In this document: positions 24,279 through 42,108 of the stretch, one piece after another
How positions within the stretch are numbered: the stretch's first letter is position 1
How the letters are laid out: every line of letters starts with the position of its first letter
IMG/VR virus record: IMGVR_UViG_3300047281_000067
Location: 1-59,977 of that record
Source: a virus
Lineage: Duplodnaviria; Caudoviricetes
Reading direction: 5' to 3' (one strand)
Length of the DNA stretch: 59,977 bases
Notes under the pieces: generated by a model
What the model was told of the DNA's origin: nothing
Seen by the model: only the letters and a program-made list of their open reading frames with translations
Databases searched by the model: none
Translations under genes and position numbers: made by a program

Positions 24279-24321
24279 AATATCTTAGTCAGCAATCGAA
24301 TATTATACACATAATACTATA

Positions 24322-25455: not shown

Positions 25456-25875
25456 AGACACATAGCAACAAACGATAGAGTTAGTTGCGTAAAGTTCATT
25501 AAAAATTTACAAGTATAGATTTCTTGCTGAGACAACACTAAACGATTATGTAAAGTGATAACAGTCCGCAATGCTGTGAAGCAAAGCGTAGCGAGAAGTT
25601 ATATTAAAACATATTGTATCACAGGATCGTGCATTGGTAGTTCAAGCAGGGGAAATGATGTAGTGTGTTTCAATATAACAAAGAAGTTATAGTAAAACAT
25701 ACTACACCGTGGGGGCTACGAACCACATAAAATAAATAAGTAGGAAAAGTAGTATGTTTTACTATAAGTTATATTTCAGTATATTACTTGCCTGAGCGTA
25801 AAACTCGTGGTAAACTACAAAAGACAGAGGGTTCGAATCCCTGGGACTGGTAGTGTATTGAAATATAACACATAT

Positions 25876-25950
25876 GTACATGAGCCCGAAGATTGAGGGT
25901 GCTGACTGAAACTCAGTGAAAGGCGATTGAAATGATACCCATGTACGCCG
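25876..25950 (+). pseudogene. degenerate tRNA-Phe(GAA)-like element
   Basis: gtacatg/catgtac acceptor, gctga-CTGAAAC-tcagt arm; T arm degenerate; ends GCCG. Confidence 0.45.
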
Positions 25951-25955
25951 AATAT

Positions 25956-26040
25956 GGAGATGAAGCATCAATGGTGATGCAGTGGACTGTAAATCCGCCG
26001 CTTAACAGCACGCTTGGTTCGATCCCAAGAATCTCCACCA
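25956..26040 (+). tRNA. tRNA-Tyr(GUA)
   Basis: loop CTGTAAA, long variable arm, CCA. Confidence 0.9.
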
Positions 26041-26182
26041 AGAGCAGCGATGGGTTACATCATCAGTATGAGCAGCAAGGTACCTAGGTAAATCCTTGGG
26101 CGAGCAATAGTACAAACACAATGTAACAGGCGATAGTGATCTATCATGGGCGGAGTCCTCAAAACGCTGTCCACCAAATTTC

Positions 26183-26257
26183 GACGCATTCGTCTAATGG
26201 TTAGGACACCAGGTTTTCATCCTGGGAACAGCGGTTCAATTCCGCTATGCGTTACCA
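26183..26257 (+). tRNA. tRNA-Glu(UUC)
   Basis: loop TTTTCAT, CCA. Confidence 0.92.
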
Positions 26258-26259
26258 AG

Positions 26260-26920
26260 TTTAGTAGTCGGTCAGAAGGCTGATAATTTATGAGTTGAAG
26301 CTCATAAGCTACTTTTTTATTTCGGAGACTGAAACTTATTTTGGTGCAGCGGTTGCTGGAGGCGGCCTGTCTGTTCGAGGATAAGCGGATAAAGTGGACG
26401 GCATATAGGTAAGTGACTAGGCGAGGACGGTAACAGTCCTTTGCGCTGAAACCGACCGCCCGTATGTAGGCTGTCTCCATCTTTTACTAAGACAATACTG
26501 AGTAAGATGAGTATCAAGAATCAAGTGGAAAGCAAGAGCCACAAAGTAAACGCTAGTCATCCTGGTTCCTCGGTGACACAATGCAGTGATACACAGCAGA
26601 AAAAAAGCGGGGTAAGAGTCCCCACGTAGAGGATGCCACTAATACTAAGACAATACTGAGTAAGATGAGTAGATGGATACGAGCCGTAGGCGACTGCGGT
26701 CATCACAGCAATGTGACAAACGATAAGCAAAGTCGGTCCAGTAGGGGTATGAAAAGTATTGTTGGCGGTGATGTTGCTGAAGGACAGAAGCTTATGACTC
26801 CACGACACTCTGTGGTGATCACAGGCGCCGTGTAATCCTTCCCTAATTTTGCGGTAGCCCCGCAGACGACTCAGTACTTGGTCGTAACATCATGTACCCA
26901 TTAGGTGAGAAGCCTATCAT
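26260..26920 (+). ncRNA. candidate large structured ncRNA (unidentified)
   Basis: ~660 nt GC-elevated gap between tRNAs with no credible ORF; 29 nt direct repeat at 26485-26513 and 26643-26671. Confidence 0.45.
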
Positions 26921-26925
26921 TATTT

Positions 26926-27000
26926 GGGGGATTGGCGTAATTGGTAACGCAGTAGCTTTGCAAGCTTCAGTCAAGAGTTCGAATCTCTTATCCTCCACCA
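26926..27000 (+). tRNA. tRNA-Ala(UGC)
   Basis: G3-U70, loop TTTGCAA, CCA. Confidence 0.92.
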
Positions 27001-27006
27001 GAACAT

Positions 27007-27081
27007 ACTCAGTTCGACTATCGGTTAGGTCAGGATACTTTCAATTTCCAGAGAGGGGTTCGACTCCCCTACTGAGTACCA
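27007..27081 (+). tRNA. tRNA-Glu(UUC)
   Basis: loop CTTTCAA, CCA. Confidence 0.88.
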
Positions 27082-27089
27082 AGAATTTA

Positions 27090-27164
27090 GCGGCATTCAT
27101 ATAACGGTCATTATCTCGGATTGTCTATCCGAAGACGGGAGTTCGACTCTCCCATGTCGCGCCA
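27090..27164 (+). tRNA. tRNA-Asp(GUC)
   Basis: loop TTGTCTA, GCCA. Confidence 0.88.
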
Positions 27165-27171
27165 AGTTTAT

Positions 27172-27249
27172 CTGTGTGTGAGAAAGTCCGGTTAATCTAC
27201 TCGCCTTGGAAGTGAGAAATCGTAGGTTCGAATCCTACTACACAGACCA
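27172..27249 (+). tRNA. tRNA-Pro(UGG)
   Basis: loop CTTGGAA, CCA. Confidence 0.87.
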
Positions 27250-27254
27250 TATAT

Positions 27255-27329
27255 GCCGTAGTAGTCCTCGGGGAGGGCAACTGATTGTCTATCAGTACCA
27301 GGCGAGTTCGAGTCTCGTCTACGGCGCCA
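27255..27329 (+). tRNA. tRNA-Asp(GUC)
   Basis: loop TTGTCTA, GCCA. Confidence 0.87.
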
Positions 27330-27336
27330 AGTTTAT

Positions 27337-27412
27337 TCCTCAGTAGCTCAGTTGGTAGAGTACAGCACTGTTAATGCTGGTGTCAGTGGTTCGAGCCCAC
27401 TCTGAGGAGCCA
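27337..27412 (+). tRNA. tRNA-Asn(GUU)
   Basis: loop CTGTTAA, GCCA. Confidence 0.94.
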
Positions 27413-27480
27413 AGTTAAGTTGTTATAGTGAGTCGCTATGCGATAAACTTTAAGTAGAGATTATAACAACTCATTAGTTT

Positions 27481-27539
27481 TAGGATGCGTTCAGCAAATA
27501 AAAAAATTCAACTTTTAATTGAAAAATAAGCATCCTGTT
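27481..27539 (+). ncRNA. Y-like RNA copy 3 with Lys(UUU) anticodon stem-loop
   Basis: aggatgc/gcatcct helix + GTTCAGCAA; ttcaa-CTTTTAA-ttgaa. Confidence 0.72.
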
Positions 27540-27546
27540 GTATTAA

Positions 27547-27620
27547 GTCTCTCTGGTGTAATGGCAGCACCGCGGTCTCCAAAACCGTCAGTCTAGGTTC
27601 GAATCCTAGGGGGGGCGCCA
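27547..27620 (+). tRNA. tRNA-Trp(CCA)
   Basis: loop CTCCAAA, GCCA. Confidence 0.92.
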
Positions 27621-27677
27621 AGTATAAAAATAAAGAGTAAGTATACATGTACTAAATATGTGTATAGCAAAGAGTTT

Positions 27678-27754
27678 GCCCCTATAGCACAATTGGTTGG
27701 TGCGTTCGACTCATAATCGAGAGGCTACTGGTTCAAGTCCAGTTGGGGGCACCA
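27678..27754 (+). tRNA. tRNA-CAU (Ile2 or Met)
   Basis: loop CTCATAA, CCA. Confidence 0.9.
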
Positions 27755-27760
27755 AGTTAA

Positions 27761-27834
27761 GCGGGATTCGTAAAATGGCATTACCTTAGATTTCCAATCT
27801 AAAGTCAACAGTTCGATTCTGTTATCCCGCTCCA
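27761..27834 (+). tRNA. tRNA-Gly(UCC)
   Basis: loop TTTCCAA, U73, CCA. Confidence 0.9.
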
Positions 27835-27907
27835 GAGTTAAGATGTTACCCATTTGGGTTGATGTCAATGAATAAAAGTAGTATAATAACTACTAGTTAG
27901 AAACAAT

Positions 27908-27991
27908 GCGAGAGTGGTGGAACGGTATACACAGCAGACTTAAAATCTGCCGCCTAACAGCTTGCGGGTTCGAATCCCGCCTCTCGCACCA
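27908..27991 (+). tRNA. tRNA-Leu(UAA)
   Basis: loop CTTAAAA, long variable arm, CCA. Confidence 0.95.
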
Positions 27992-27997
27992 AGAATC

Positions 27998-28089
27998 GGA
28001 AGCGTGGCCGAGTGGCCGAAGGCAACTCCTTGCTAAGGAGTCGACCCCTTTAAACGGGTCCGTGAGTTCGAATCTCACCGCTTCCTCCA
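27998..28089 (+). tRNA. tRNA-Ser(GCU)
   Basis: loop TTGCTAA, long variable arm, CCA. Confidence 0.93.
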
Positions 28090-28121
28090 AACACTCACAA
28101 TCATTAACACAAGGAAACACA

Positions 28122-28286
28122 ATGAAACCCACAAAGACTTTCAAACTGACAAAACGTACAAAGACAATCATGGCTCTAATTGGCTTTGCCGATCAAAGCC
28201 AGCGCAATGCGTTCAAGAATATGATGGTTCAAGCGCAGTTGGCCAGTGAAGTACGACCAGCAAAAGATAAGTCAGATCGTAAGTAA
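28122..28286 (+). CDS. small basic hypothetical protein
   Basis: AAGGA RBS; MKPTKTFKLTKRTKT...; the longer track ORF runs through tRNAs. Confidence 0.65.
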   Translation: MKPTKTFKLTKRTKTIMALIGFADQSQRNAFKNMMVQAQLASEVRPAKDKSDRK

Positions 28287-28292
28287 ATAAAT

Positions 28293-28368
28293 GTACGTGT
28301 GTCCTGAATGGTTAGGGAGCGGATTGCAAATCCGTATTATGCAGGTTCGAGTCCTGTCACGTACTCCA
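28293..28368 (+). tRNA. tRNA-Cys(GCA)
   Basis: loop TTGCAAA, U73, CCA. Confidence 0.92.
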
Positions 28369-28375
28369 AATAAAC

Positions 28376-28451
28376 ACCAAGATAGCTCAGATGGTAGAGC
28401 AGTGGCCTGAAAAGTCATGTGTCGCAGGTTCGATCCCTGCTCTCGGTACCA
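28376..28451 (+). tRNA. tRNA-Phe(GAA)
   Basis: loop CTGAAAA, CCA. Confidence 0.93.
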
Positions 28452-28456
28452 AATAA

Positions 28457-28530
28457 GCCCTGTTAGTTAAGTGGTAGAACACGTGTTTTGTAATCACGGG
28501 ATGGCAGTTCGATTCTGTCACGGGGCACCA
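28457..28530 (+). tRNA. tRNA-Thr(UGU)
   Basis: loop TTTGTAA, CCA. Confidence 0.87.
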
Positions 28531-28727
28531 AGTTTTGAGAACCTGTAGCTTACTGCCTAGAGTAGTAAGTAACCGAAAGGGTAAGATAGAGCTATGTTAG
28601 ATACATAGGCAGGAATCTCGATTAAGTTTAGTAAGACACGCGGGTTGACCACAACGACACGCATCAAGGTAAGGTGTCTGAAGTGTAAGTAGCAGGTTTG
28701 GTCATGCTTACATACGAAAAAGTTTTT

Positions 28728-28801
28728 CTCGGTATAGTGAAATGGTATCACTCGACGTTTGGGACGTTGGAGCGTAGGTTCGATTCCTGCTACCGAGACC
28801 A
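28728..28801 (+). tRNA. tRNA-Pro(UGG)
   Basis: loop TTTGGGA, CCA overlapping a conserved hairpin. Confidence 0.9.
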
Positions 28802-29402
28802 TATTAAAACACACTAGTTCTTAGGGTTGTTCCGAAGATAATTATCTCCAATGGAGTCCTAGTATGTTTTAATATGGTAAATGTAGGCACCAACCTACTG
28901 CTAGGGTACGTCCCCGGTTTAATCTTTCTGAGCGATAAAGTAGCCGCTGTAAGCAATACACCTTCTCCGCACGAAATGGATGGTTACCATGGAAGGCGAA
29001 CGACTGAAAAAGAGAAAAAGCGAAAGAAAGTCAGAGATTGGTACTGACACCATATTGAAGTACATTGTGGAGAGCACTGTGTAGACTGAGAAGGTTTGAT
29101 TCCGACTCACTACATCACTCGGTATCCTGCGGCCGCAACAGTGTATTTCAATATGGTAATAACCAACAAGTTTTGTAAGTGTTAGCAAGAGAAAGTCACG
29201 CTATGTACTATTCTTCGAAGGTGGTACAGAAGTAAAAGGTCAAGTGGGTTCAACTCCCAGCCGCGCTCTTAAAGTGAAAGCGGCGCAGATTGGTTGCCGG
29301 TGCTGGACAAAGTATTCCAAGTAACATACCGCTCCCGTCCGGACTAGTTAAATCGGGAGAAGCGTTGAGATACAAGCGGCTCAACTACTTACAGATTCAA
29401 TT

Positions 29403-29463
29403 TAGGATGCCTACTGCAAACATAAAACTTTCACTGTAAATGAAAAAAATGTGCATCCTGTTA
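29403..29463 (+). ncRNA. Y-like RNA copy 4 with Tyr(GUA) anticodon stem-loop
   Basis: aggatgc/gcatcct helix + CTGCAA; tttca-CTGTAAA-tgaaa. Confidence 0.72.
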
Positions 29464-29475
29464 TATTATCGGTTT

Positions 29476-29596
29476 TAGGATACATTCAGCAACACTTAAT
29501 ATCAAGCAGTATGTCAGTGGTTCGAATCCACTCCGAGGCGAAAGCTAAGGTAGCTCAGTTGGTAGAGCAACAGCCAATAAAAAGCGTATCCTGTTA
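29476..29596 (+). ncRNA. Y-like RNA copy 5, YrlA-type permuted tRNA mimic
   Basis: aggatac/gtatcct helix + TTCAGCAA; T arm agtggTTCGAATccact, then GAAA-capped acceptor-like stem, then D arm tagctcagttggtagagc. Confidence 0.8.
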
Positions 29597-29601
29597 TATA
29601 A

Positions 29602-29676
29602 GCTCGTTTAGCACAGCGGTAGTGCGCTATCTCGACAAGATAGAGGTCAAAAGTTCAAATCTTTTAACGAGTACCA
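29602..29676 (+). tRNA. tRNA-Val(GAC), C33
   Basis: loop TCGACAA, CCA. Confidence 0.85.
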
Positions 29677-29694
29677 ATCAACATAAGGAATTAT

Positions 29695-29868
29695 ATGAGC
29701 AAAGGCGACCGCCCAAGAAAACCCACAATTCCATTAGTGGAATTTAATAGCAAACTAGATACGATCTTCGGTGTAAAGCCGCCGAAAGAGCGATGGGTTG
29801 CTCCTCCCCTCCCAGTAGATGAACCAGTTGTAAAGAAAAACATCTGGGCATCTGATAAAGAAGTTTAA
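29695..29868 (+). CDS. small hypothetical protein (MSKG..PR family)
   Basis: AAGGA RBS; MSKGDRPRKPTI..., similar to the ORF at 37141. Confidence 0.6.
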   Translation: MSKGDRPRKPTIPLVEFNSKLDTIFGVKPPKERWVAPPLPVDEPVVKKNIWASDKEV

Positions 29869-29968
29869 TAAAGAAAGACTATATGAAGCGAAGTTCAGCT
29901 AAACTATAGTGTCCCTTGGATCTCCGTATGGTCTAGGGTGGCACGTAAAAGAAAACTAATACGAACAC

Positions 29969-30043
29969 CCATGCTAAACTTTAGTGGTGAAGTAACCGGC
30001 TCTTAACCGGAGGAACAGAGTTCGAGTCTCTGAGCATGGACCA
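29969..30043 (+). tRNA. tRNA-Lys(CUU)
   Basis: loop CTCTTAA, CCA. Confidence 0.87.
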
Positions 30044-30045
30044 TA

Positions 30046-30120
30046 CGGGGTATAATTCAATGGTTAGAATAGTCGGCTTTTAACCGATCTATCACGGTTC
30101 GAGTCCGTGTGCCCCGACCA
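30046..30120 (+). tRNA. tRNA-Lys(UUU)
   Basis: loop CTTTTAA, CCA. Confidence 0.92.
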
Positions 30121-30228
30121 TAAGCAAGCACATTATTTAAAAAGGAACGCAAGTTCTAGGCATAGCCAATGGCATCGTAACGGTGGGTAGTGTGCTTACT
30201 TATGGTAACAACAAGATAAGAGAAAAAT

Positions 30229-30477
30229 ATGTTTAAAGTTTATTATACTGATCCAATCACTGATTCCTCTCATGCTCACAATGTTGCTTCATTGAATGAA
30301 GCACTACGCCATACAGAAGGGTTTCGCAAACTAGGCATGACCTTTGTTACTATGGTAGCAGAGGATCCAAATCAAGTTGGTAAGTCTGGCGTTGATTCAA
30401 TCGTAGATGGCAAGTGTCCGGACGGCGTTGCTTACGATTGGAATAAGTCCAGTCGCATTGGCGCAACAAGACGATAA
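30229..30477 (+). CDS. conserved hypothetical protein
   Basis: FVTMVAEDPNQVGKSGVD...YDW motif. Confidence 0.7.
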   Translation: MFKVYYTDPITDSSHAHNVASLNEALRHTEGFRKLGMTFVTMVAEDPNQVGKSGVDSIVDGKCPDGVAYDWNKSSRIGATRR

Positions 30478-30491
30478 CGATAAATAATTTC

Positions 30492-31835
30492 ATGCCTAAT
30501 AAAAATATATTTTGTTCTAGTCCATGGTTACATATTAAAATTGACTACGATGGAAGATTTGTTCCGTGTCGATGGCAGTCAACAATCAATCCTGAAGTTG
30601 ATTCTAGCAATTTACGCTCAATGAGTATCTTAGAATTTTACAATTCATCTAGAATGAACCAGTTTAGAAGCAATCTTTTAGAAGGTTCTGACCTAACTGA
30701 ATGTTCTTCATGTAAGTATGAAGATTCATTCGAAAAGGTAAGTGGTAGATTAAAACAGTTATATCGCAGTGGTATTGCTATCGAATCATTTGATCGAGAC
30801 TTTTCAAAAAGTCATCACTATGAATTGTTTAACTACAGTACTGATAACAATGGTCAAACTAATGCCTACCCGTACGATTTTCAAATTAATTTGAGTAATG
30901 TGTGTAATAGTGCTTGTATTATGTGTGCTCCGCATTTTAGTACTCGTCTAGTTCAAGATTATCAGAAACTATCAAAATTCGCCCCGGTATTATTTAAACA
31001 ACCAAAAAAAATTAATTGTTGGGCAGATGATCCTTCACTCGTCGAAAAATTTATACGTGATATTAAAGAATTACCGTACATTGATTATATACATTTGTTG
31101 GGCGGTGAAACTCTCTTATTAGAAAGTTTTTACACAATATGTGATGCATTGATTGAATCCGGACTATCAAAAACTATTTATTTAGGTACTACTACTAATT
31201 TAACAGTGTATTCACCTAAAATTGAAAATATTGTTACTAAGTTCTCTAAATTTCACTTAGGATTGAGTATTGAATCAGTTAATCCGTTGAATGATTATAT
31301 TAGATATCCGTCTAAGATCACTGGCATATTAGAAAATTTATCAAAATATTTATCCCTAAGAGATAAATATCCGGACAAACTACACATGTCATTGCGCATC
31401 ACTCCTAATATTTTTAGTATTTTTTATATTGATGAAGTTATACAATATATGTGTGATAATGACATAACTGGCGAAAGTTGTAATATATTGATTCGTCCTG
31501 AATGTTTGCGAATGGAATTAATGCCGGAAAATATACGATTGCTCACTATTGAAAAACTTAACGCAGTGATTAACAAAAATGAATTGTCTCGGGCCAAAGT
31601 AGTAAATATTCGAGACAATAATCTAACGCGAGAAGTGATTTCCACTATTGCGTTCACATACGTTGATTTCTTAGAAAATCTAGTTCTACCGTCGGACGGT
31701 GAAAAACAACGACATGATCTAGTAACATTCCTTCATGGATTTGAGTCTATAAGAGGAAATTCAATATTAGACTATGCCCCGGAGTATGAAACATTTCTAA
31801 AAGCATATGGTTATACGCGCCCACTTGACATTTAA
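30492..31835 (+). CDS. radical SAM protein with N-terminal twitch/SPASM-like domain
   Basis: FCSSPW..PC, ECSSC, CNSACIMC, LGGETLL, YIRYP. Confidence 0.88.
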   Translation: MPNKNIFCSSPWLHIKIDYDGRFVPCRWQSTINPEVDSSNLRSMSILEFYNSSRMNQFRSNLLEGSDLTECSSCKYEDSFEKVSGRLKQLYRSGIAIESFDRDFSKSHHYELFNYSTDNNGQTNAYPYDFQINLSNVCNSACIMCAPHFSTRLVQDYQKLSKFAPVLFKQPKKINCWADDPSLVEKFIRDIKELPYIDYIHLLGGETLLLESFYTICDALIESGLSKTIYLGTTTNLTVYSPKIENIVTKFSKFHLGLSIESVNPLNDYIRYPSKITGILENLSKYLSLRDKYPDKLHMSLRITPNIFSIFYIDEVIQYMCDNDITGESCNILIRPECLRMELMPENIRLLTIEKLNAVINKNELSRAKVVNIRDNNLTREVISTIAFTYVDFLENLVLPSDGEKQRHDLVTFLHGFESIRGNSILDYAPEYETFLKAYGYTRPLDI

Positions 31836-32203
31836 TGCGAATGCTGCTATAATAGACACATACGATAAGAAAGCAACTTCTAATCAGTTTGAAAGAACAG
31901 AAAAAGAGGTTGACATTTAATCAAAACGGTGTTATAATTAATACTTAGACAGCAGCAAGTGAGAAACAATGACAACTTCAACTAAAGTAATACAAGTTTG
32001 TAAAGAGAACAAAGTTCTTAAATTCATTACAACCCGTTTATTTGTAATCATTCTTGGGCTGTTGATTATCAGTAAAGGATTGGTTAATCCAACTAAAATG
32101 TTGGCTCAACTTGAAAATTCACTTGACAATTAATCAAAACGGTGTTATAATAGACACATAGCAGAAAATGATAGAGTTAACTGCTAAACGATCTTTAAAA
32201 AGT
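31825..32203 (+). promoter_or_regulatory. three sigma70 promoters (-35 at 31825, 31910, 32123) with boxA-like element
   Basis: TTGACA-17-TATAAT three times; 32123-32163 duplicates 25427-25467; gatctttaaaaa at ~32190. Confidence 0.8.
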
Positions 32204-32217
32204 TAGAAAATAATTTA

Positions 32218-32291
32218 CCCGGATAGCTCAGTGGTAGAGCAGTACCTTGATAAGGTATTGGTCGCAAGTTCAAATCTTGCTCCGGGTACCA
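32218..32291 (+). tRNA. tRNA-Ile(GAU)
   Basis: loop TTGATAA, CCA overlapping a conserved hairpin. Confidence 0.93.
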
Positions 32292-33631
32292 TATTGAAAT
32301 GCATTAGATACCTTTTAACATACGTTCGCCCGGCGCTCTTGTATGTTAGATACCTTTTAGTGTGTTTCAATATGGTAACAAAGGAGTAATTACCCTTAGC
32401 CAGAATCGGAATTGATCATCCGATAACCTCGCACTCTTCTAGTGGTCAGGAAGCCCTTTGGGAAACGTTGGTTCGATTCCAACATGCAATGAGGTTGCTA
32501 TATTAAAGTACATTCGATCAGCAACCGTTTCGCACTGCTTTCGGTCAATGTTTTAGTGAATGTACTTTAATATGGTAAGTTGATTGAATCGTGGTTAACT
32601 CCACCAGACCGAAACGTCTAGAGCGTGTCGAAGTAAGATTCCAGCTGCCATATTAAAACATATTTCGTGTTAGGGGTAAGCCGTATAACGTTTTCGGACA
32701 CGGGTCAAGTATGTTTCAATATGGTGATAGCTTAGTAGGAGAGTGCAGCGTTGTCGCGCTGCGGGCATAGGTGCAAATCCTGTTCACTGTTTAGGTTCCG
32801 GTGTAAGGTCATTCCTTACCGTAAACGTCAGCGTTAGGCGTGACATCCTTGAAGAGACAGGGGCCATATATAAACACACATAAGTGACTGGTTAGTCCCA
32901 GACTCCACGTGTAAGACTGGTATAAGTGTGTTTTTATATGGTGACCTCAAGTCCAAAGGAAGGAAAGGGCGTGTTTGAATGGACAAATTGCAGTTCCTTC
33001 TAGGGTCCGGCTTGTCAGCTTTGGGGCGGCGCACCATTCTATATTAAAACACATTGCCGAAGTTGGTTCGGTTAGACAGGGAGATCCAATTGCCCATGTC
33101 GTTAGTGTGTTTCAATATGGTATATCAGTTTTTAGTGAGTCATATACGGGACTGCCACTCGCGGGATACTGAGACTCGGAATCTCGGACACTAATTACAG
33201 AAGCAGTGCTAGGTGCATCTGGCATTGTTGATACACCATATTAAAATACATTAGAGAAGAAACTCCATATCACCCAGGGAAGGATATGGTTTGACGGCAC
33301 AGACTAGGAGGTGTAGCAATACATCGGCGATGCTTGCTAGTGTATTTTAATATGGTCCTTGTATAATCCACTGAAGTTTGATTTTTCTAGATACAGTTAA
33401 ACATAGGGTCTAGGTAGTTTAGGATTATCTGTTATATTTGAGGCATTAGATATAACGTGTTGTGGGTTCAAGGCCTACCAAGGATCACCATATTAAAGCA
33501 TACTCACCGACCATTTAAAATTGACACGGAGGTAAAGCTAGGTTTTGTCAATGCTACCTAGTGGAGTATGTTTTAATATGGTAAAGCAAATTGAGTTCAA
33601 TGGTCACACGCCCTTGCTCATTATGAAAGTT

Positions 33632-33752
33632 GCCATAGTTGAATACATTGTTTAGCTCAGTCGGTAGAGCGACCACTATTATACTAGTTACGTGGGGATA
33701 AATTGTCACAGAGCGCGGGTTCGAGTCCCGCAATAGTGTATTCAACTATGGT
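33632..33752 (+). ncRNA. tRNA-like RNA whose acceptor stem is the ~20 bp conserved hairpin
   Basis: D arm tagctcagtcggtagagc and T arm gcgggTTCGAGTcccgc stacked on gccatagttgaatacattgtt/aatagtgtattcaactatggt. Confidence 0.65.
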
Positions 33753-35068
33753 ATGTCACAGATGAAAATTATCATCCTTCGAAAGATGATTACAGTAATC
33801 TAAGATAAGCAGCGGAGCAATAGAGACTAGAGGGCTGCCGGCCCACCGTGCTCAGATGCTAACACGAGTAAATGCATGGAAAATGTTAGATGCTTGACAG
33901 ACCATATTAAAACACACAAAGGTAGTTGCAACTACTGATGTTGGTATAGCTCTTACTCGCAGAGTGAGCAAGCGGTTCGATTCCGCAGTGTGTTTTAATA
34001 TGGTATTCAAGTCGAGCGGGATTAAGTTCAGTCGGTGCGTAATAGCACAGAACATGTAGCTGGTAAATGGTGCAGGCAGTTGGTATAGTACCCAATAAGT
34101 AAAAACATTAGCCTGATTAAATAGCCCGTGGCGACCTACTTGGTATCATTTCAATAATTAGTCCCGCCAAGCCTACACGAACATTTCCCTAGTTTGTGTG
34201 GCTCAAACCGGTCGAGGTAGATGTAAGCTCTATCATTAAAAATGTACATACTACTGGCGCAGTGTGACAGGATTTCTAGCCCGAGGATTGTCGTCCAAGA
34301 AATGCGGAACAACAAGAGTGAAAACTTTTGCCGACTCAGAAGACACTGTGGAGATCATCTTAGGGGATGGTCGCCATAGTTGAATACATTGTCAAGTGCC
34401 TGACTGAAACGGGCGTCGAGTACGTAGAACGTGGGAAGAAGGTGCGGAAGAAGGTGCAAATCCTTCATACTCTATTTCAGACTTGCTAGTGTATTCAACT
34501 ATGGTTAGTATCAGAGGATGGGAACGAAACAGGGTTGCTAGTCACAATCAATGTCGTGAACGGGTGCTGAGAAGTTTCGAGAGCAGGCCTGACCGCTGGA
34601 GGGTAGAAACACCATATAAAAACATTTTTGACGGGGAAGGTGCTGCAACTAAAAGCGGTAATTACTTCGGTCCTCTGGTAGGGGCGAAACGTTCTTTGTA
34701 CCAGCATTGAACTAATATTGAAAATGTTTCTATATGGTCAGTTGAGAAGATTGGGTAATCTCTTAGACATTCAACTAAGAGGCCATATTAAAATACATTG
34801 ATTGTGATTTGCTTACGGAGCGACTCCGTTAGAATCCGTTAAACGATAAAAGCATAAAGGTTAAAGTCCTTTACGGTGTGTTTTAATATGGTGATAGTTT
34901 AATGATAGAACGGCGGGCACACAGGTTAAGACGCCTACTCGTATATGCAGGTTCAATTCCTTCTCACCATTTAGAAAATAGTTCCGGGTTTGTTTACCCC
35001 GCGGAGAACACGGCGGTTTTGTTGAGATTATAATCTCAACAACTCAGGGAGCCTAACGTAAACACACT

Positions 35069-35144
35069 GGAGCAGTAACATAGCGGCTAATGTATCTCCC
35101 TGTCTAGGAGACTATCGTGGGTTCGAGTCCCATCTGCTTCGCCA
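35069..35144 (+). tRNA. tRNA-Asp(GUC)
   Basis: loop CTGTCTA, GCCA. Confidence 0.9.
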
Positions 35145-35179
35145 ATTTTAAATTGTCATTAGTTATGAATGATAAATAA

Positions 35180-35515
35180 ATGTATATGATTGAAAATCGA
35201 CGAGGACGGCTAAGATACTATCTTAGAGATGCTAAACTAAGGGCTAAGAAAAAATCATTACCCTTTGACTTAGATTTAAATTTTTTAGATTCTATCGCCA
35301 CTGATAAATGTCCAATTTTTGGGACAGCGTTTATTTTTGGAGAAGCAACTAAGTTGTCACCGACTTCTCCGTCTTTAGATCGAATTATTCCATCTAAGGG
35401 ATATGTTAGGGATAATGTTGTTTTTATTAGTCATCGGGCAAATACAATAAAGCATAATGTAGTTGGGCCGGATGACTTATATAAGGTAGCTGATTGGTTA
35501 AGTAGTAAAATATAG
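35180..35515 (+). CDS. putative His-Me finger (HNH-like) endonuclease
   Basis: CPIFG...SPSLDRIIPSKGYVRDNVVFISHRAN. Confidence 0.7.
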   Translation: MYMIENRRGRLRYYLRDAKLRAKKKSLPFDLDLNFLDSIATDKCPIFGTAFIFGEATKLSPTSPSLDRIIPSKGYVRDNVVFISHRANTIKHNVVGPDDLYKVADWLSSKI

Positions 35516-35520
35516 AATAA

Positions 35521-35608
35521 GGAAGATTGGCAGAGTGGCCGATTGCATCAGTCTTGAAAACTGAAGGCTCGAAAGGGTCCGAGAGTTCGAATCTCTCATC
35601 TTCCTCCA
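35521..35608 (+). tRNA. tRNA-Ser(UGA)
   Basis: loop CTTGAAA, long variable arm, CCA. Confidence 0.95.
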
Positions 35609-35635
35609 GCATAAATACTAAATCAGGAGTGACAA

Positions 35636-35869
35636 ATGATTTTAGTAGAACAGTTAGTTGAGTTAGCAGAAGAAATTGAAATAGGTGACCCAATTGATTG
35701 GGGTATGCTTGATGTTAGTGAGCATGAAGCGTATATGTTAATTGCGCCGAGTGTTTTGGAAAACTTTAACTTGACAGAAGTTAAACATCGTGATATAATG
35801 ATGTTAGCAACGATAGTTAAGTTGACGGTAGAAAATTTTGCTTTAAATCTAACGCTGTTACAACGATGA
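35636..35869 (+). CDS. hypothetical protein
   Basis: AGGAG RBS, 77 aa. Confidence 0.65.
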   Translation: MILVEQLVELAEEIEIGDPIDWGMLDVSEHEAYMLIAPSVLENFNLTEVKHRDIMMLATIVKLTVENFALNLTLLQR

Positions 35870-35897
35870 TAATTAATACCAAGTAAGGTACTAGATA

Positions 35898-36695
35898 ATG
35901 CCACAAGATATACACTTACTTTATTCCGGCGGATCCGGAGGATTTTTTTGTCTACACTTATTGTTATTGACAGGTAAATATAATTGTAAATTTAATTGTG
36001 ACACACAAGACTATCAAACTATTTTTAAAAATCACTGGAATATAAATTCTGACCATTGGAAAAAATCAGAAATTTGGCCGCTAAATTCAAACACATTTGA
36101 GTCAAATCTGACAAATAAATTGTATTATACATGTAATCCAAAAGGTGATGCTCTTACGCGATTTAATGGAACAACAATTGTTCTATATACTGATATCGAA
36201 ACTCAGTGGTTTTTAGCAAAAACAAAACATGCTCTATGGTTTACCAAAGATGAAACTTTTAAAGAACAACGTTTGTGTTCATTAAAAGAACATCAGCGTA
36301 ATCAATTTATATTATTGTATTACCAAGTGAAGGCTCCTGACTGGCCATTGTGTAATTCTATAGAGGAATTTTTTAATCTTCCCGAAGTCATACAGCATGA
36401 GTGTATAGATCAATTTAATTTCAATGACGTATTAGATATTGACAAGTTTTTGATACAATTTAAAGAGTCTGGTTCAATTACATATAATGGTGAAAAGATA
36501 ACACGTCTTTTAAAAACTGATATAGATATTGACGAGGCAGACATACGTATTAAATTACATGACCTAATTAAAACTAAAGGTGAAGTATTATTTGAACAAT
36601 TGGGAATACACGGTAACGAAAAGACTAGAGATTTTGTAGATATGTATATACAATTGCATACTCCGGAGCAACAGCAGTATTTGTTAAAAAAATAA
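35898..36695 (+). CDS. hypothetical protein
   Basis: 265 aa; YSGGSGGFF N-terminal loop, YYQVKAPDWP motif. Confidence 0.65.
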   Translation: MPQDIHLLYSGGSGGFFCLHLLLLTGKYNCKFNCDTQDYQTIFKNHWNINSDHWKKSEIWPLNSNTFESNLTNKLYYTCNPKGDALTRFNGTTIVLYTDIETQWFLAKTKHALWFTKDETFKEQRLCSLKEHQRNQFILLYYQVKAPDWPLCNSIEEFFNLPEVIQHECIDQFNFNDVLDIDKFLIQFKESGSITYNGEKITRLLKTDIDIDEADIRIKLHDLIKTKGEVLFEQLGIHGNEKTRDFVDMYIQLHTPEQQQYLLKK

Positions 36696-36742
36696 ATATA
36701 ACGCTGTTACAGCGGTGATAAATAAGTATTGTTAAGTTAATT

Positions 36743-36827
36743 GCCCCTTTGGCGGAATTGGTAGACGCGCCAGATTTAGGTTCTGGTATCGAGAGGTGTA
36801 GGAGTTCGAGTCTCCTGAGGGGCACCA
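36743..36827 (+). tRNA. tRNA-Leu(UAG)
   Basis: loop TTTAGGT, long variable arm, CCA. Confidence 0.95.
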
Positions 36828-36875
36828 AATATATATTAAAGCGCATTAAGTGTTCTTTGCTATATAAGAATTTGT

Positions 36876-36951
36876 GGGGGTGTAGCTCAGCTGGGAGAGC
36901 GACTGCTTTGCAAGCAGTAGGTAGCGGGTTCGAGTCCTGTCACCTCCACCA
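36876..36951 (+). tRNA. tRNA-Ala(UGC)
   Basis: G3-U70, loop TTTGCAA, CCA. Confidence 0.95.
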
Positions 36952-36958
36952 AGTATTA

Positions 36959-37032
36959 CGCGGGTAGGGTAGTCACCACACCGGTCTCATAAGCCAGGTG
37001 CATCGGCAGTGCGAATCTGTCACCCGCATCCA
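36959..37032 (+). tRNA. initiator-like tRNA-Met(CAU), atypical D arm
   Basis: C1:A72 mismatch, loop CTCATAA, T loop TGCGAAT, CCA. Confidence 0.7.
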
Positions 37033-37036
37033 ATTT

Positions 37037-37112
37037 GGATCCTTAACTCAGTTGGTAGAGTGTTGCGTTTACATCGCAAATGTCGGCGGTTCGAGCCCGT
37101 CAGGATTCACCA
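37037..37112 (+). tRNA. tRNA-Val(UAC)
   Basis: loop TTTACAT, CCA. Confidence 0.93.
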
Positions 37113-37303: not shown

Positions 37304-37513
37304 ATGCCAGAACAATGTAGCGAAGGTGCTAAAACCGCAGTTGGTAATCGTTATGATCTAGTTCTTATTGCGGCTGCCCGCATTCGAGAATTGCGAAAAG
37401 GACATTTACCTAAGGTAACTTGTAAGAACACAGTTACTGTTACTGCTCTTAAAGAAATTGAAGCCGGATTTATCGGTCGAGACTATCTAAAAAAAGTTAG
37501 AATCATATCTTGA
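37304..37513 (+). CDS. rpoZ: RNA polymerase omega subunit homolog
   Basis: VGNRYDLVLIAAARIREL...TVTALKEIEAG; AAGGA RBS. Confidence 0.88.
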   Translation: MPEQCSEGAKTAVGNRYDLVLIAAARIRELRKGHLPKVTCKNTVTVTALKEIEAGFIGRDYLKKVRIIS

Positions 37514-38067
37514 AAACAATAATTCTTTTAGCATTAAAAGAAGAGGCTCCGTCATTAGGAGCCTATTCCAATGTGTTCTTTACTGGTGTAGGTAAAGTAA
37601 ATGCGGCTAGTATGACTGCTATGCTCATTGAACGTCACAAGCCAGACCGGATTATAAACTTTGGTACTGCTGGTGGAATCACTGTACACTCAGGGCTACA
37701 CCAAGTGTCAAAATTCGTTCAACGTGACATGATATGTTGCGAACTAGGAAGTAAACCTGGACAAACCCCATTCGAATCTAAATATGAAATAATTTTGAAT
37801 ACAGGCGGCAATGGTCTTACTTGTTCAACCGGTGATAACTTTGTAACCGACTCTAATTTACAAATACCAGCTGATGTAGTGGACATGGAAGCATACGCCA
37901 TTGCGAAAGTGTGTCAGAGGAATTTAGTAGAATTTTTATGCTACAAATATATCAGTGACGGTGCCAATGAAGATTCATTCGCTCAGTGGCATGAACTTGT
38001 CGCCACCGGCGAACAATCCTACATTGATACACTGCGCGATTTAAAAGTCGAAATCATCAATCAGTAA
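37510..38067 (+). CDS. MTA/SAH nucleosidase-like (PNP_UDP_1) protein
   Basis: TGVGKVNAA, INFGTAGG, STGDNF, VDMEAYA, KYISDGA. Confidence 0.88.
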   Translation: MKTIILLALKEEAPSLGAYSNVFFTGVGKVNAASMTAMLIERHKPDRIINFGTAGGITVHSGLHQVSKFVQRDMICCELGSKPGQTPFESKYEIILNTGGNGLTCSTGDNFVTDSNLQIPADVVDMEAYAIAKVCQRNLVEFLCYKYISDGANEDSFAQWHELVATGEQSYIDTLRDLKVEIINQ

Positions 38068-38070
38068 AAT

Positions 38071-39012
38071 ATGAAATATATACTAACTCTCTTACTATCA
38101 TTTATTATAAGCGCACACGCAGCACAGTCCCAGTCTCCGCTTGAAATTATCGTTCCATTACCACCGGGGGGTCCCACTGACTCTCTCGCAAGAGCAGTCC
38201 AACTGTATCTGACTAAATCACTCTCACGCAATGTGATAGTGGTTAATAAGCCAGGTGCTGATGGCCGTATCGCCGGCCGATATGCTGTAAGTAAACCATC
38301 TGATGGATCAAGTTTGGTAATTATTGGCACTGGTCCATTTGTATACAACAAAGTACTGTATTCAAATCTCGGATATGACTATTCAGAGTTTGATATGGTT
38401 TTGCCAATTGTCCGAACTCCAGTGGGAATAATGGTATCTGCTGACAGTAAAATTAGTACATTGTCTGAGTTAGTAAATTACTCTACTAAGAATCAATTGA
38501 ACTGCGGAGTGAGCAATTCCGGAGGTAAATTAATCGCGGGCTATTTGAAAGTAAAATTAGAAATGTCGTCGTCAGTGCTAATTGTTCCGTATACCGGTTC
38601 TGGCCCAGCAATCAATGATCTATTGGGCGGACATATAAACTGTGTAGTAGATGCGGTCTCGTCATATAAATCATATCACTTGGCTAAAAAAATCAAAATC
38701 ATCGCATTGACTGGCAATGATCAAATAGTTGAACTAGGTCATATTCCGCTAGTGAAAGAATCACTCCCTGAATTCGTGATATTTAATTGGTTCGGGGTAG
38801 GTATTCTGAAAGGTACTCCTGATGACATTAAACATCAAATCTTGTCTTCTCTGAAACATATTAATAACGATGCTGACTTTTTAAAGTCAGTAGCAGCCAC
38901 TGGACTTGACGCAACACGAAGTTCAGACACCCCTACTAAATTATTGGATACAGAATATAAAAAAATATCAGATATTGCTAAAGTATTGGCTATTCCCAAG
39001 ACAGTAGACTAG
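38071..39012 (+). CDS. tripartite tricarboxylate transporter substrate-binding protein (Bug/TctC)
   Basis: signal peptide; IIVPLPPGGPTDSLAR, VNKPGADG, VPYTGSGPAINDLLGG. Confidence 0.88.
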   Translation: MKYILTLLLSFIISAHAAQSQSPLEIIVPLPPGGPTDSLARAVQLYLTKSLSRNVIVVNKPGADGRIAGRYAVSKPSDGSSLVIIGTGPFVYNKVLYSNLGYDYSEFDMVLPIVRTPVGIMVSADSKISTLSELVNYSTKNQLNCGVSNSGGKLIAGYLKVKLEMSSSVLIVPYTGSGPAINDLLGGHINCVVDAVSSYKSYHLAKKIKIIALTGNDQIVELGHIPLVKESLPEFVIFNWFGVGILKGTPDDIKHQILSSLKHINNDADFLKSVAATGLDATRSSDTPTKLLDTEYKKISDIAKVLAIPKTVD

Positions 39013-40175: not shown

Positions 40176-40625
40176 GTGTCAGTTACATTACAAAACTTAG
40201 AAAATGCTTTAGCTGGTGAATCAATTGCTCATGTAAAATATCGTTATTTTGCACGCATCGCCCGCGAAGAAGGCTTCGAAGAAATTGCCCAACATTTTGA
40301 GCATACAGCAGATCAAGAGATACTCCATGCCTGGGGTCATCTAGACTTGCTTATCGGTAAACCTTCTACTAAGGAATGCTTAGAAAAAGCAATCGCAGGC
40401 GAGACATATGAGTTTACTGCAATGTATCCTAGCTATGTATATGCTGCTCAACAAGAACAGAACACTGAAGCTCTCTCTGAATTTCAAGGACAGATCGTTG
40501 AATCAAAAGAACATGCTGCTCAGTTCAAAGCTGTATTGGCAAAAGCAGAAAAACGTTTTGCTGCTCTGACTAAAGTAGAGAAGCGCCACGCTGAAGCATA
40601 TACACAAGTACTGGGGACAATGTAA
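40176..40625 (+). CDS. rubrerythrin (ferritin-like domain)
   Basis: ALAGESIAH.KY, EILHA, ETYEFT.MYP, ESKEHA, EKRHA. Confidence 0.9.
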   Translation: MSVTLQNLENALAGESIAHVKYRYFARIAREEGFEEIAQHFEHTADQEILHAWGHLDLLIGKPSTKECLEKAIAGETYEFTAMYPSYVYAAQQEQNTEALSEFQGQIVESKEHAAQFKAVLAKAEKRFAALTKVEKRHAEAYTQVLGTM

Positions 40626-40753
40626 TGGATCATGTTTGTATTGTATGTGGTCATGTCCACGATGAAGAACTAGAAGGCGCATGGGATACGCTCCCTGATG
40701 ATTATCTATGCCCGGAATGTGGCGTGGGTAAAGAAGATTACGAAACATTGTAA
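40625..40753 (+). CDS. rubredoxin
   Basis: MDHVCIVCGHVHDE...LPDDYLCPECGVGKEDY; below the ORF track cutoff; TAATG coupling to rubrerythrin. Confidence 0.9.
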   Translation: MDHVCIVCGHVHDEELEGAWDTLPDDYLCPECGVGKEDYETL

Positions 40754-40768
40754 TTTACCCAAAATGTG

Positions 40769-40797
40769 TTTACAACAACACGAAAGTAAGTTATAAT
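40769..40797 (+). promoter_or_regulatory. sigma70 promoter directly upstream of Y-like copy 6
   Basis: TTTACA-17-TATAAT. Confidence 0.7.
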
Positions 40798-40807
40798 AGT
40801 CACTTAC

Positions 40808-41055
40808 TAGGATGAGTTCAGCATTTAAAATACTAACGTAATTACATAGAAAGCGGTCGTAGGACAGTAGCAATACTTCTAGGCAACTAGACGCTCAAGG
40901 AATGAATGACAGAATGGAAAGACATCCTATGTTGCTAGTAGCAGACACAATTACTAGATAGTCAACATGAATGTTGATAGGGTCGCAGTAACTGAACCAA
41001 CATACAGGGGACAGTGCGACCAGAAAATAAAATAACGGTTACTATCATCCTGTTA
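40808..41055 (+). ncRNA. Y-like RNA copy 6 (long, ~250 nt)
   Basis: aggatga/tcatcct helix + GTTCAGCA, CCTGTTA end; internal GCAA/GAAA tetraloop hairpins. Confidence 0.65.
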
Positions 41056-41059
41056 AAAT

Positions 41060-41857
41060 ATGCAAGTTCTATTACAAGACATTAGTACATACGAAACCAG
41101 AACTATCAGTCAAGCATGTATGCTATCTGATATAAAGGTACATCGTACAAGTTTAGGAATGTTACAAACACTCTTTGACTTCAAGACTGAATTACTACGA
41201 GGGGATTTAATGCCCGTTGGTAGTGTAGAGTTTGTAAGAGAATGTTTCTCTATCATGGATATAGAATCACCCGGGTGGTCCTCATATCCCGACGAATTAG
41301 AAGAATTCTTACACAGAAAACTTAAAGTACGCAGTGCACCTTATATTCGCATAATGTATACTTCTCAAGCAATAGAGACACCCGTGTTCATCAAACCAGC
41401 ATATCAAGTAAAATTGTTCAACGGGTTTGTATTTTATCCTACTAAAAAGCGGGAAGATTATGATGAACATGATCAAGAGCAGTGGGATATCGTAATGTCA
41501 GCGGACAATAAGACATTATTGTGTATCAGCGATGTAGTAGACTTTCATAGTGAATGGCGATATTATATCGATGACAATAAGATCATTGGGTCAGCAAGAT
41601 ATGACGATGGTCCTGATTCAGCATTAGCACCAGAGATAGATGTAGTCAATCAAATGATTGAGGCTATGCCGATAAATCATCCTTACACATTGGATGTAGG
41701 GAGACTGTCAACTGGTGGCACCGCTTTGGTGGAAATCAACGATGCTTGGGCAATCGGGTTGTACGGTAAAGCATTAACCCCAAGAGTTTATTTAGACTTT
41801 TTGGGTAAACGATGGAAATCAATTGTTGAAAAACACTTGACAAGTAATCAAAACTAA
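41060..41857 (+). CDS. ATP-grasp domain protein (DUF4343/R2K-like)
   Basis: PVGSVEF, YPDEL..FLHR, VFIKP, SEWRYYI, TLDVG, LVEIND.WAIGLY. Confidence 0.8.
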   Translation: MQVLLQDISTYETRTISQACMLSDIKVHRTSLGMLQTLFDFKTELLRGDLMPVGSVEFVRECFSIMDIESPGWSSYPDELEEFLHRKLKVRSAPYIRIMYTSQAIETPVFIKPAYQVKLFNGFVFYPTKKREDYDEHDQEQWDIVMSADNKTLLCISDVVDFHSEWRYYIDDNKIIGSARYDDGPDSALAPEIDVVNQMIEAMPINHPYTLDVGRLSTGGTALVEINDAWAIGLYGKALTPRVYLDFLGKRWKSIVEKHLTSNQN

Positions 41858-41865
41858 GCTATAAT
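41837..41865 (+). promoter_or_regulatory. sigma70 promoter for Y-like copies 7-8 and the Ro60-like gene
   Basis: TTGACA-17-TATAAT. Confidence 0.85.
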
Positions 41866-41886
41866 TAACGCTTAGACACTGAGATT

Positions 41887-42022: not shown

Positions 42023-42026
42023 AATT

Positions 42027-42093: not shown

Positions 42094-42108
42094 AAGAAAG
42101 AGAAAATT

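Follow-up and report, generated by a model that had tools for sequence, protein, structure and literature searches.

CCA-anchored RNA hairpins with exchangeable inserts in the tRNA arrays of lake phages

Why does a phage tRNA array carry long hairpins that share one stem and enclose inserts with nothing in common? Such arrays are usually taken as a supply of tRNAs for codon usage or against host defence. We examined this question in the IMG/VR virus record IMGVR_UViG_3300047281_000067 (Caudoviricetes), listed as a linear fragment; its full length of 59,977 bases is called the window below. ARAGORN placed 40 tRNA genes in it, from 19750 to 37112 and all on the + strand. On the same strand lie 20 hairpin units, in each of which a consensus stem of 19-20 bp, ACCAUAUUAAAACACAUU.../...AGUGUGUUUUAAUAUGGU, encloses an unrelated insert; 12 of the 20 are packed into 2.6 kb (32288-34892). 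We found that arrays of uncultured freshwater phages appear to hold, besides tRNAs, a large, modular and uncatalogued class of small-RNA genes, with one shared helix tied to the CCA ends of specific tRNAs.

Selection on the hairpins as RNA

Every unit that a sequence-only reading of the window had listed, the 12 of the dense array and eight others, was recovered within 1-5 nt by an inverted-repeat scan, RNAfold and pair tables. Unit length ranged from 74 to 133 nt, with gaps of 43-368 nt between units, and the inserts were 36-95 nt long after trimming 19 nt per side. The arm motif occurred 30 times in the window at no more than two mismatches, against 2.97 expected (largest 8), and none of 100 shuffles reached 30. 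Over the 19 stem positions of the 20 units (380 cells, + strand) we counted 331 Watson-Crick, 35 G-U, 7 A-C and 7 other pairs, five of the seven A-C cells falling at one and the same position. Arm mismatches are thus mostly G-U, as had been claimed, and the covarying arm variants are real: CCAUAGUUGAAUAC/GUAUUCAACUAUGG in units 33632 and 34373, and CCAUAAGCAAGCAC/GUGCUUACUUAUGG in unit 30117. The absence of a credible open reading frame (ORF) was also borne out, as the longest one overlapping 32200-34950 has 75 amino acids and spans hairpins; between the units lie structured RNAs instead of ORFs. Minimum-free-energy z-scores of inserts and spacers were mostly unremarkable (-3.5 to +1.0) and are uninformative because these RNAs are so short.

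We used the exact 18-mer of the arm as a query and found at least 118 viral contig loci. One-stranded tRNA arrays were present in 99 of the 118 motif-bearing viral loci listed. The same 18-mer gave single chance matches nearly throughout 596 Gb of bacterial and archaeal genomes, with one entry holding two among the matches listed, so the paired arm architecture belongs to phage tRNA arrays. Units were collected with a filter that tolerated up to four mismatches in each arm and required 13 or more of 15 pairs, which yielded 228 units from 96 loci and the window; this consensus filter inflates apparent sequence conservation, and related loci are not independent. The window contributed 18 units, the most of any source, and is also the longest source. 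The family is absent from Rfam 15, and we found no description of it in the literature; the supplementary motif lists of Weinberg et al. 2017 (PMC5737381), which lay outside the search, might hold a related motif. We conclude that the hairpin family is widespread in phage tRNA arrays and uncatalogued. The dense array itself has no cultured counterpart: when 32200-35000 was compared by blastn with 50,697 GenBank phage records, the tRNA-Ile alone matched (47 records, none covering 80% or more), and beyond that tRNA the array resembles no cultured GenBank phage.

Base-pairing statistics in the 228 units, taken on the tRNA-sense strand over stem positions 0-19, gave 3785 Watson-Crick, 373 G-U, 158 A-C and 244 other pairs. 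A U-G wobble was kept at position 15 in 151 of 228 units. Position 7 was A-U in 107 units, A-C in 52 and G-C in 35, and never G-U. At the 15 most variable stem positions, the CCA:UGG pairs included, pairing among the 195 distinct units exceeded the maximum of 1000 permutations of the 3' arm; related sequences inflate this test, and its direction is consistent. The first C of CCA:UGG covaried with its partner (CG 162, UA 9, UG 5). Pairing stayed at 84% or more through position 17, save for 72% at the A-C site of position 7, and fell to 52% at position 18, which means that the length of the helix is sharply set. Sequence was also retained at single sites, with A2, U3, A4 and A9 kept in 97-100% of the 195 distinct consensus units, a figure inflated by the filter.

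A strand preference was seen inside the inserts too. A hairpin resembling a tRNA T-arm (G-UUCRANN-C on a 4-5 bp stem) occurred in 23 of 228 units, against 3 for its reverse complement and a mean of 1.4 in shuffled sequences. Only a few bases separate 12 of these 23 from the 3' arm, an arrangement like that of a tRNA minihelix. In the window they were found in four of 20 units, with a full cloverleaf in one alone (33646-33739).

A consensus scan found seven perfect (12/12) sigma-70-type promoters, TTGACA-17-TGnTATAAT with an extended -10 TG, all on the + strand and all in the RNA gene region (25098, 25329, 25427, 31825, 31910, 32123 and 35771), though such a scan leaves their use in vivo unproven. 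Three of them (31825, 31910 and 32123, together 31825-32151) stand directly before the tRNA-Ile and the dense array. The excess of G-U over A-C, the covariation of the arms, the T-arms of one strand and compensatory changes between phages within inserts (described below) make it well supported that selection acts on the RNA of the tRNA strand. The view that these are RNA helices rather than DNA palindromes, first reached from the window alone, therefore holds, and the perfect promoters on the same strand agree with it.

CCA anchoring, tRNA preference and inserts

Many of the hairpins begin on a tRNA. In four window units the 5' arm opens with RCCA, which doubles as the discriminator and CCA of a tRNA: unit 25217-25299 starts on tRNA-Arg(UCU) (25146-25220), 28798-28878 on tRNA-Pro(UGG) (28728-28801), 30117-30206, with the covarying CCAUAAGCAAGCAC stem, on tRNA-Lys(UUU) (30046-30120), and 32288-32376, the first of the dense array, on tRNA-Ile(GAU) (32217-32291; ARAGORN and Rfam). 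Across phages, 122 of 228 units begin exactly on the CCA of an ARAGORN tRNA. At the other end, the next tRNA follows at -1 or 0 nt after 33 of 228 units, and 88 tRNAs lie within 12 nt downstream. This anchoring shifts the reading from a free-standing array of small RNAs to tRNA-trailer modules. The sequence-only reading had missed it; its "second library" of small RNAs survives in the common handle and the diversity of inserts and is revised as to the free-standing array. The processing signals or protein-binding handles that it proposed remain putative.

Structures resembling tRNAs were also present beside and inside window units. Several inter-unit spacers finish with T-arm, acceptor-like strand and NCCA, and tRNA-like elements start in the last 3'-arm bases of units 3 (32647-32725) and 12 (34782-34892) of the dense array, with Rfam tRNA scores of 42.4 and 42.2 bits. 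Unit 12 also has a T-arm-like hairpin beside its 3' arm. The insert of unit 8 (33632-33752) forms a tRNA-like cloverleaf of its own (Rfam tRNA, 40.1 bits), with an acceptor stem continuous with the conserved stem. We observed separately that the three tRNA-like elements (32721-32791, 33646-33739 and 34888-34971; 40-42 bits) are aberrant, with odd anticodon regions, one having a 15-nt loop and one a 19-nt insertion. Before unit 2 (32497-32576) stands a 72-nt cloverleaf-like pseudo-tRNA with a T-arm (about 32425-32496), followed by GCUA where NCCA would be expected.

The remaining units of the dense array, all + strand and located by scan or folding, are unit 4 (32863-32942), unit 5 (33038-33121), unit 6 (33235-33356), unit 7 (33487-33582), unit 9 (33901-34004), with a T-arm (GCGGUUCGAUUCCGC) 2 nt from its 3' arm, unit 10 (34373-34505), with the covarying stem of unit 8 and a T-arm-like hairpin in its insert, and unit 11 (34611-34738). 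Outside it, unit 19675-19748 has the variant stem UAUUCUAAAACAUACUC/GAGUGUGUUUUAGAAUA and ends 1 nt before tRNA-Gln(UUG) 19750, 25598-25679 carries the GUUAUAUU variant, 25684-25770 another variant stem, 25768-25869 an insert with the T-arm-like GAGGGUUCGAAUCCCU, and a further unit lies at 29049-29157.

We found that the hairpins are not spread evenly over tRNA types. Consensus-type units follow 43 of 82 tRNA-Glu(UUC), 34 of 64 tRNA-Lys(UUU), 14 of 57 tRNA-Gln(UUG) and 8 of 48 tRNA-Leu(UAG) genes, and at most 11% of any other type. An additional search was blind to sequence: it asked for a hairpin of at least 16 bp starting from the discriminator or CCA and enclosing no tRNA, over 2259 tRNAs in 179 loci. 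Such hairpins were found on 177 of the 2259 tRNAs, many of them with unrelated arm sequences, and again on tRNA-Glu(UUC) (67/112), tRNA-Lys(UUU) (46/84), tRNA-Gln(UUG) (17/73) and tRNA-Leu(UAG) (13/85). Long CCA-anchored hairpins thus stand on 23-60% of the Glu(UUC), Lys(UUU) and Gln(UUG) genes, against 15% or less for any other tRNA. The inserts behind these tRNAs fall into many distinct clusters (Lys 27, Glu 21, Gln 9, Leu(UAG) 8), so the bias does not come from one duplicated locus. The non-consensus hairpins have 19-23 pairs and sequences unrelated to the consensus. Since place and length recur with unrelated stems, the common denominator is a shape, a helix of two turns that takes in the CCA end, and the consensus stem is the most successful subfamily of that shape. 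The window departs from the bias: just one of its units, 30117 (Lys), follows a Glu, Lys or Gln tRNA, and none of its three tRNA-Glu genes has a unit.

The 228 inserts fell into 141 sequence clusters, which fits the earlier proposal of a library of small RNAs on a common handle. Predicted structure within the larger families was conserved. In the largest, of about 214 nt and 16 sequences, 30 of 59 predicted pairs showed double compensatory changes, in addition to invariant single-stranded blocks; in a 115-nt family of seven sequences, double changes affected 13 of 43 predicted pairs. Judged by these patterns, the inserts look like functional RNAs. The insert of unit 5 is 90% identical to that of a unit in a related locus (L102:1776-1856), and the flanks of the two do not align. 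A role as guides found no support within the 60 kb window: when the 20 inserts were compared with the remainder of the window, the longest exact antisense matches were 9-13 nt, and none of the 20 exceeded the shuffle maximum.

Other structured RNAs share these arrays. Among the related loci, GOLLD RNAs and transfer-messenger RNA were seen inside arrays at L041:1381-1845, L104:8336-8801, L078:7999-8461(-), L117:8466-8886(-) and L117:2136-2594(-), which places these arrays among lake phages rich in stable RNAs. The GOLLD RNA of L104 has a hairpin of the family 4 nt behind it, and one further conserved RNA is likewise followed by family hairpins. A conserved inter-unit RNA family was noticed at 34176-34372 of the window and at L046:325-514(-), L062:5943-6132(-), L073:4060-4249, L091:4864-5053(-) and L038:6679-6868. 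It has no Rfam match, always stops just before a GCCAUAGUUCAA-type hairpin and keeps the invariant blocks CCCUA, GGCGA, GGNNCGUCGNCC, AAGACACUAUG and CCACUUUAGGGAGUGG; CCCUA could pair with a UAGGG loop, possibly as a pseudoknot.

Possible roles of the helix

Taken together, the sequence evidence points to the stem as a module for processing and stability within a polycistronic precursor of tRNAs and small RNAs, opened by RNase III-type or tRNA 3'-end cleavage, and we give this reading a probability of about one half. It starts from what was observed: a helix selected as RNA and anchored on CCA, inserts that are modular and conserved, and units co-oriented with tRNAs and promoters; from these we infer a single precursor transcript, its cleavage and the enzyme involved, as well as any function of the inserts. 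The hairpins would be made on the tRNA strand as parts of long precursor transcripts. Each helix of 19-20 bp would start on the discriminator and CCA of an upstream tRNA, tRNA-like or other structured RNA and close with UGGU right before the next gene, enclosing an exchangeable structured insert. With the CCA end locked in a two-turn duplex, the helix would have to be cut or opened before the upstream tRNA could mature or be charged. This could happen by either of two routes. A host double-strand-specific endonuclease of the RNase III type may cut across the stem, or an RNase E or RNase BN/Z type of enzyme may cut after the CCA in the conserved, AU-rich CCA-UAUU, with RNase P acting at the downstream tRNA. 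Either route would separate the neighbours and release the insert as a small RNA capped by what remains of the stem.

Two helical turns are the size of an RNase III substrate, and the stems of rRNA operons and the sites of phage T7 are precedents for such cutting. The constant two-turn length of the phage helix fits the RNase III-type route. All 20 window units provide 19-20 bp where RNase III stems have about 20 bp of uninterrupted double-stranded RNA flanking the excised RNA, and the units lie on the strand of the 40 tRNAs with perfect promoters upstream, an arrangement consistent with a putative polycistronic transcript of stable RNAs. The hairpins after GOLLD and another conserved RNA fit a general punctuation role. 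As in the leader-trailer helices of 16S and 23S rRNA and in T7 early transcripts, a long duplex is formed from the flanks of an RNA in what would be a polycistronic stable-RNA precursor, measures about two helical turns, is alike at the sites within one phage and has tRNA neighbours. Unlike those stems, the phage helix begins on the tRNA's own CCA, encloses a small exchangeable insert instead of an rRNA or a short loop, and conserves part of its sequence across distant phages; its cleavage here would be by analogy. A structured RNA right after a tRNA, to be freed by processing of tRNA 3' and 5' ends, is also found in the tRNA-pre-miRNA (microRNA precursor) chimeras of murine gammaherpesvirus 68 (MHV68), in plant tRNA-snoRNA (small nucleolar RNA) genes and in tRNA-spacer small RNAs of E. 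coli such as 3'ETS-leuZ. To our knowledge, none of these trailers pairs with the CCA end, has a common 19-bp handle or comes in arrays of 12-20 units.

Several observations weigh against a role in processing. A search of the window and five related records, of which four are complete, turned up no phage RNase III, so the enzyme would have to be the host's. RNase III has little sequence specificity, which leaves the conservation of A2, U3, A4 and A9 unexplained, and a plain processing signal accounts neither for the strong bias towards tRNA-Glu(UUC), Lys(UUU) and Gln(UUG) nor for an A-C that recurs at stem position 7 (52/228 units), where G-U never occurs. Most phage tRNA arrays mature without hairpins, and relatives keep the same tRNA pairs 4-25 nt apart with no unit between them, which makes the module dispensable for tRNA maturation as such. 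Nor do RNA libraries lend direct support. Three freshwater RNA-library runs contain 10-19% of the sampled words of the window, and their contigs include sequences identical to it (32308-32509, 32593-32743, 32758-32908 and 33947-34328 in X2; 34020-34223 in X3). These contigs, from two studies, carry no end information and cover coding stretches at similar depth, one of them runs through a 3' arm, and DNA carry-over is possible; they speak neither for nor against transcription or cleavage.

If the helix is a processing signal, it would reveal a viral way of punctuating a transcript that holds dozens of non-coding RNAs and of stabilising these RNAs, and offer a natural scaffold for expressing structured RNAs. 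Whatever its role, it gives a testable handle on the stable RNAs that phages keep near tRNAs (GOLLD, ROOL and others), whose function has been unknown since their discovery.

Another proposal is that the stem masks the CCA. The helix would hold the 3' ends of Glu-UUC, Lys-UUU and Gln-UUG tRNAs and of tRNA-like RNAs in a duplex, shielding them from host nucleases or end-modifying toxins or delaying charging until a trigger, with the insert as sensor or decoy. The CCA always lies within the helix, and its pairing with UGG is kept by covariation. The sequence-blind frequencies of hairpins on the three tRNAs, and the 27, 21 and 9 insert clusters behind Lys, Glu and Gln, point the same way. These three tRNAs have a common 2-thio-U34 modification and are classic targets of anticodon nucleases. 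Sites that have no unit often retain an ACCA...UGG mini-hairpin. In the window, however, a single unit of the 20 (30117) follows one of the three tRNAs and three tRNA-Glu genes stand bare, no sensor or trigger could be identified, and the bias may stem from ancestry or array position, related loci not being independent. We consider this explanation unlikely, if a serious one.

A comparably doubtful explanation is that the units form a library like the Y RNAs, the stem being the handle for a phage Ro60-like protein and each insert an effector module. The window encodes such a protein downstream of the array (42109-43524, + strand), with DUF2828 and a vWA-like DUF7788 by domain search. In PHROG the ORF falls to family 850, "RNA-binding protein" (E 8.8e-142). 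Its close environmental relatives number in the thousands, and it is 67-92% identical over 80 related viral loci (L135-L214; best tblastn segment). The Pfam TROVE model found no match in the window, this ORF included. An AlphaFold model was built (43 sequences; predicted local distance difference test, pLDDT, 77.7), and its 13 best PDB matches were all Ro60/TROVE proteins, matched over their full length (E 5e-9 to 3e-5, template-modelling score 0.35-0.60), the Ro60 of Thermus phage phiLo and Rsr of D. radiodurans among them. The model suggests a structural Ro60/TROVE homolog missed by Pfam TROVE. The protein is a possible, not obligate, partner of the hairpins.

Position ties this gene to the arrays. 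At least three tRNAs lie upstream of it in 35 of the 38 related loci with at least 5 kb of upstream sequence, and at least one hairpin unit in 25 of the 38. The last tRNA is 0.36-2.1 kb from the gene in 33 of 36 loci, and arrays lie downstream in just 3 of 40. According to PMC4201824, Y RNAs have a stem formed from their 5' and 3' ends and variable, often tRNA-like modules that tether Ro60 to other factors; PMC12135203 reports two Y-like RNAs of Thermus phage phiLo, Yrl1 and Yrl2, to which the phage's own Ro60 binds. The phage units resemble Y RNAs and YrlA in this architecture. T-arm-like hairpins occur in four of the 20 window inserts, and in this lineage a Ro60-fold gene sits beside the array, which gives the reading its appeal.

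Further checks speak against this reading in general. As far as those sources describe them, Y RNAs carry the Ro60-binding motif GNCGAAN0-1G (CGAA) on the 5' strand of the terminal stem (PMC4201824), lie within about 4 kb of the Ro60 gene and number 1-7. The phage stem is a perfect helix with no GNCGAA or CGAA bulge; the motif is absent from the stems and was found in one of 20 window units (in its insert) and in the first 30 nt of the 5' strand in one of 228. The units number 20 and lie 7-22 kb away from the gene. Rfam gave no match to Y RNA or YrlA in the window at gathering score, where 43 tRNA matches and no other family were found, or at E values up to 5-10 in 32100-35200 and 40400-44400, where just chance-level matches to microRNAs, small RNAs and 5' untranslated regions appeared. 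Among ten large hairpin-bearing phage records a single one has the gene. No DUF2828 or TROVE match was obtained in four complete genomes (172, 329, 162 and 322 kb) that have bona fide units; in five hairpin-rich records, fragments 5-29% complete, the gene was likewise not found, which is uninformative. Complete hairpin-bearing phages that do without the gene reduce a Y-RNA-like role to a minority reading. The Ro60-like gene at the end of the array, identified by structure, is thus non-obligatory, and its product may use some array RNAs in this lineage.

A bolder reading is also conceivable. The stems would be a universal handle for more than 140 structured RNA modules, some of them tRNA-like, launched from the 3' ends of Glu(UUC), Lys(UUU) and Gln(UUG) tRNAs of lake jumbo phages, acting as decoys, sponges or tethers against tRNA-centred defences and read here by the Ro60-like ring protein encoded at the array's end, as a 20-member viral Y-RNA-like system. 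We regard this as slightly less probable still than CCA masking or the Y-RNA-like library. If the inserts were decoys or partners of Ro60, they would add a new layer of RNA-based conflict between phage and host.

Finally, the units might be mobile or recombination cassettes acting as DNA, with arms that are terminal repeats or single-stranded DNA hairpin sites (of the kind of miniature inverted-repeat transposable elements (MITEs), IS200/IS605 or attC) after tRNA genes, and with passenger sequence between them. Turnover is evident. In 161 unit/locus pairs the same two flanks lie at most 25 nt apart in another locus, one insert family can stand behind different tRNAs, and tRNA 3' ends are classic integration sites. 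HNH (23498-24058) and GIY-YIG (44311-44676) endonuclease ORFs are present in the window, the former inside the tRNA region. We inspected eight junctions between filled and empty sites: short spacers such as ACCAUAUUUCGGU or ACCAAUCAAUGGA replace the unit, and neither a target-site duplication nor a clean excision scar was found at the eight. The G-U asymmetry and covariation extend into the CCA:UGG pairs, and the inserts show RNA-type covariation and sense-only T-arms; single-stranded DNA hairpins also tolerate G-T, so the asymmetry alone is not decisive. No transposase or integrase was found among 30 window ORFs scanned, a subset of the ORFs, and no integrase search with hidden Markov models was made. 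Units are often gained, lost and exchanged, nothing points to a transposase-type mechanism, and we hold DNA cassettes to be improbable. At empty sites (L096:1792-1806, L208:625-639 and others) we observed that the spacer (ACCAUAUUUCGGU, ACCAAUCAAUGGA) often pairs CCA with UGG before the next tRNA as a mini-hairpin.

Four known classes of element were rejected: MITE/IS-type terminal inverted repeats (eight junctions with no duplication; G-U to A-C 373:158 on one strand); a CRISPR array (arms inverted, not direct, with irregular units of 74-133 nt and gaps of 43-368 nt); self-cleaving ribozymes 3' of tRNAs, whether theta/HDV-like (resembling hepatitis delta virus), hammerhead or twister (141 unrelated insert clusters, no Rfam ribozyme match); and intrinsic terminators (no + strand unit stem is terminator-like, the stems are AU-rich and the next gene follows). 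Theta ribozymes, which are minimal HDV-like ribozymes, also stand right behind phage tRNAs, where they could generate the tRNA 3' end. Unlike them, the units can have no common catalytic core, as they share a plain helix only and their inserts are unrelated.

Other genes and sequence blocks of the window

The window tRNAs are flanked by genes of phage type, for ribonucleotide reductase, S-adenosylmethionine (SAM) synthetase, a cell-wall hydrolase and tail-fibre-like proteins. Two radical-SAM ORFs lie among the tRNA genes (21918-23351 and 30492-31835), one of them with an N-terminal SPASM domain, and may encode RNA-modifying enzymes. A search for relatives through the ORF at 30492-31835 returned loci at 26-30% identity at most. 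Three ORFs in the RNA region (24322-25101, 35180-35515 and 35898-36695) matched no Pfam or PHROG family, and the last of these fell into unnamed viral clusters only in a protein atlas. Between the array and the Ro60-like gene (37510-39012, 40176-40625) we noticed host-like metabolic genes for a PNP/UDP-type phosphorylase, a TctC-family tricarboxylate-binding receptor and rubrerythrin. The Ro60-like gene has an ATP-grasp gene of the R2K clade (41060-41857) directly upstream and a candidate SprT-like metallopeptidase directly downstream.

Two sequence blocks recur outside the window. The block at 32122-32205 is 86-92% identical in loci L048 and L140. The ATP-grasp and Ro60-like genes are preceded by promoter-like sites and, after these, by untranslated leaders of about 240 nt (40754-41059 and 41836-42108). 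Within the first, the block 40789-40984 recurs at 88% identity in L136 and L137, directly 3' of tRNA-Arg(UCU); this block may be one more small RNA or else a leader with a regulatory role.

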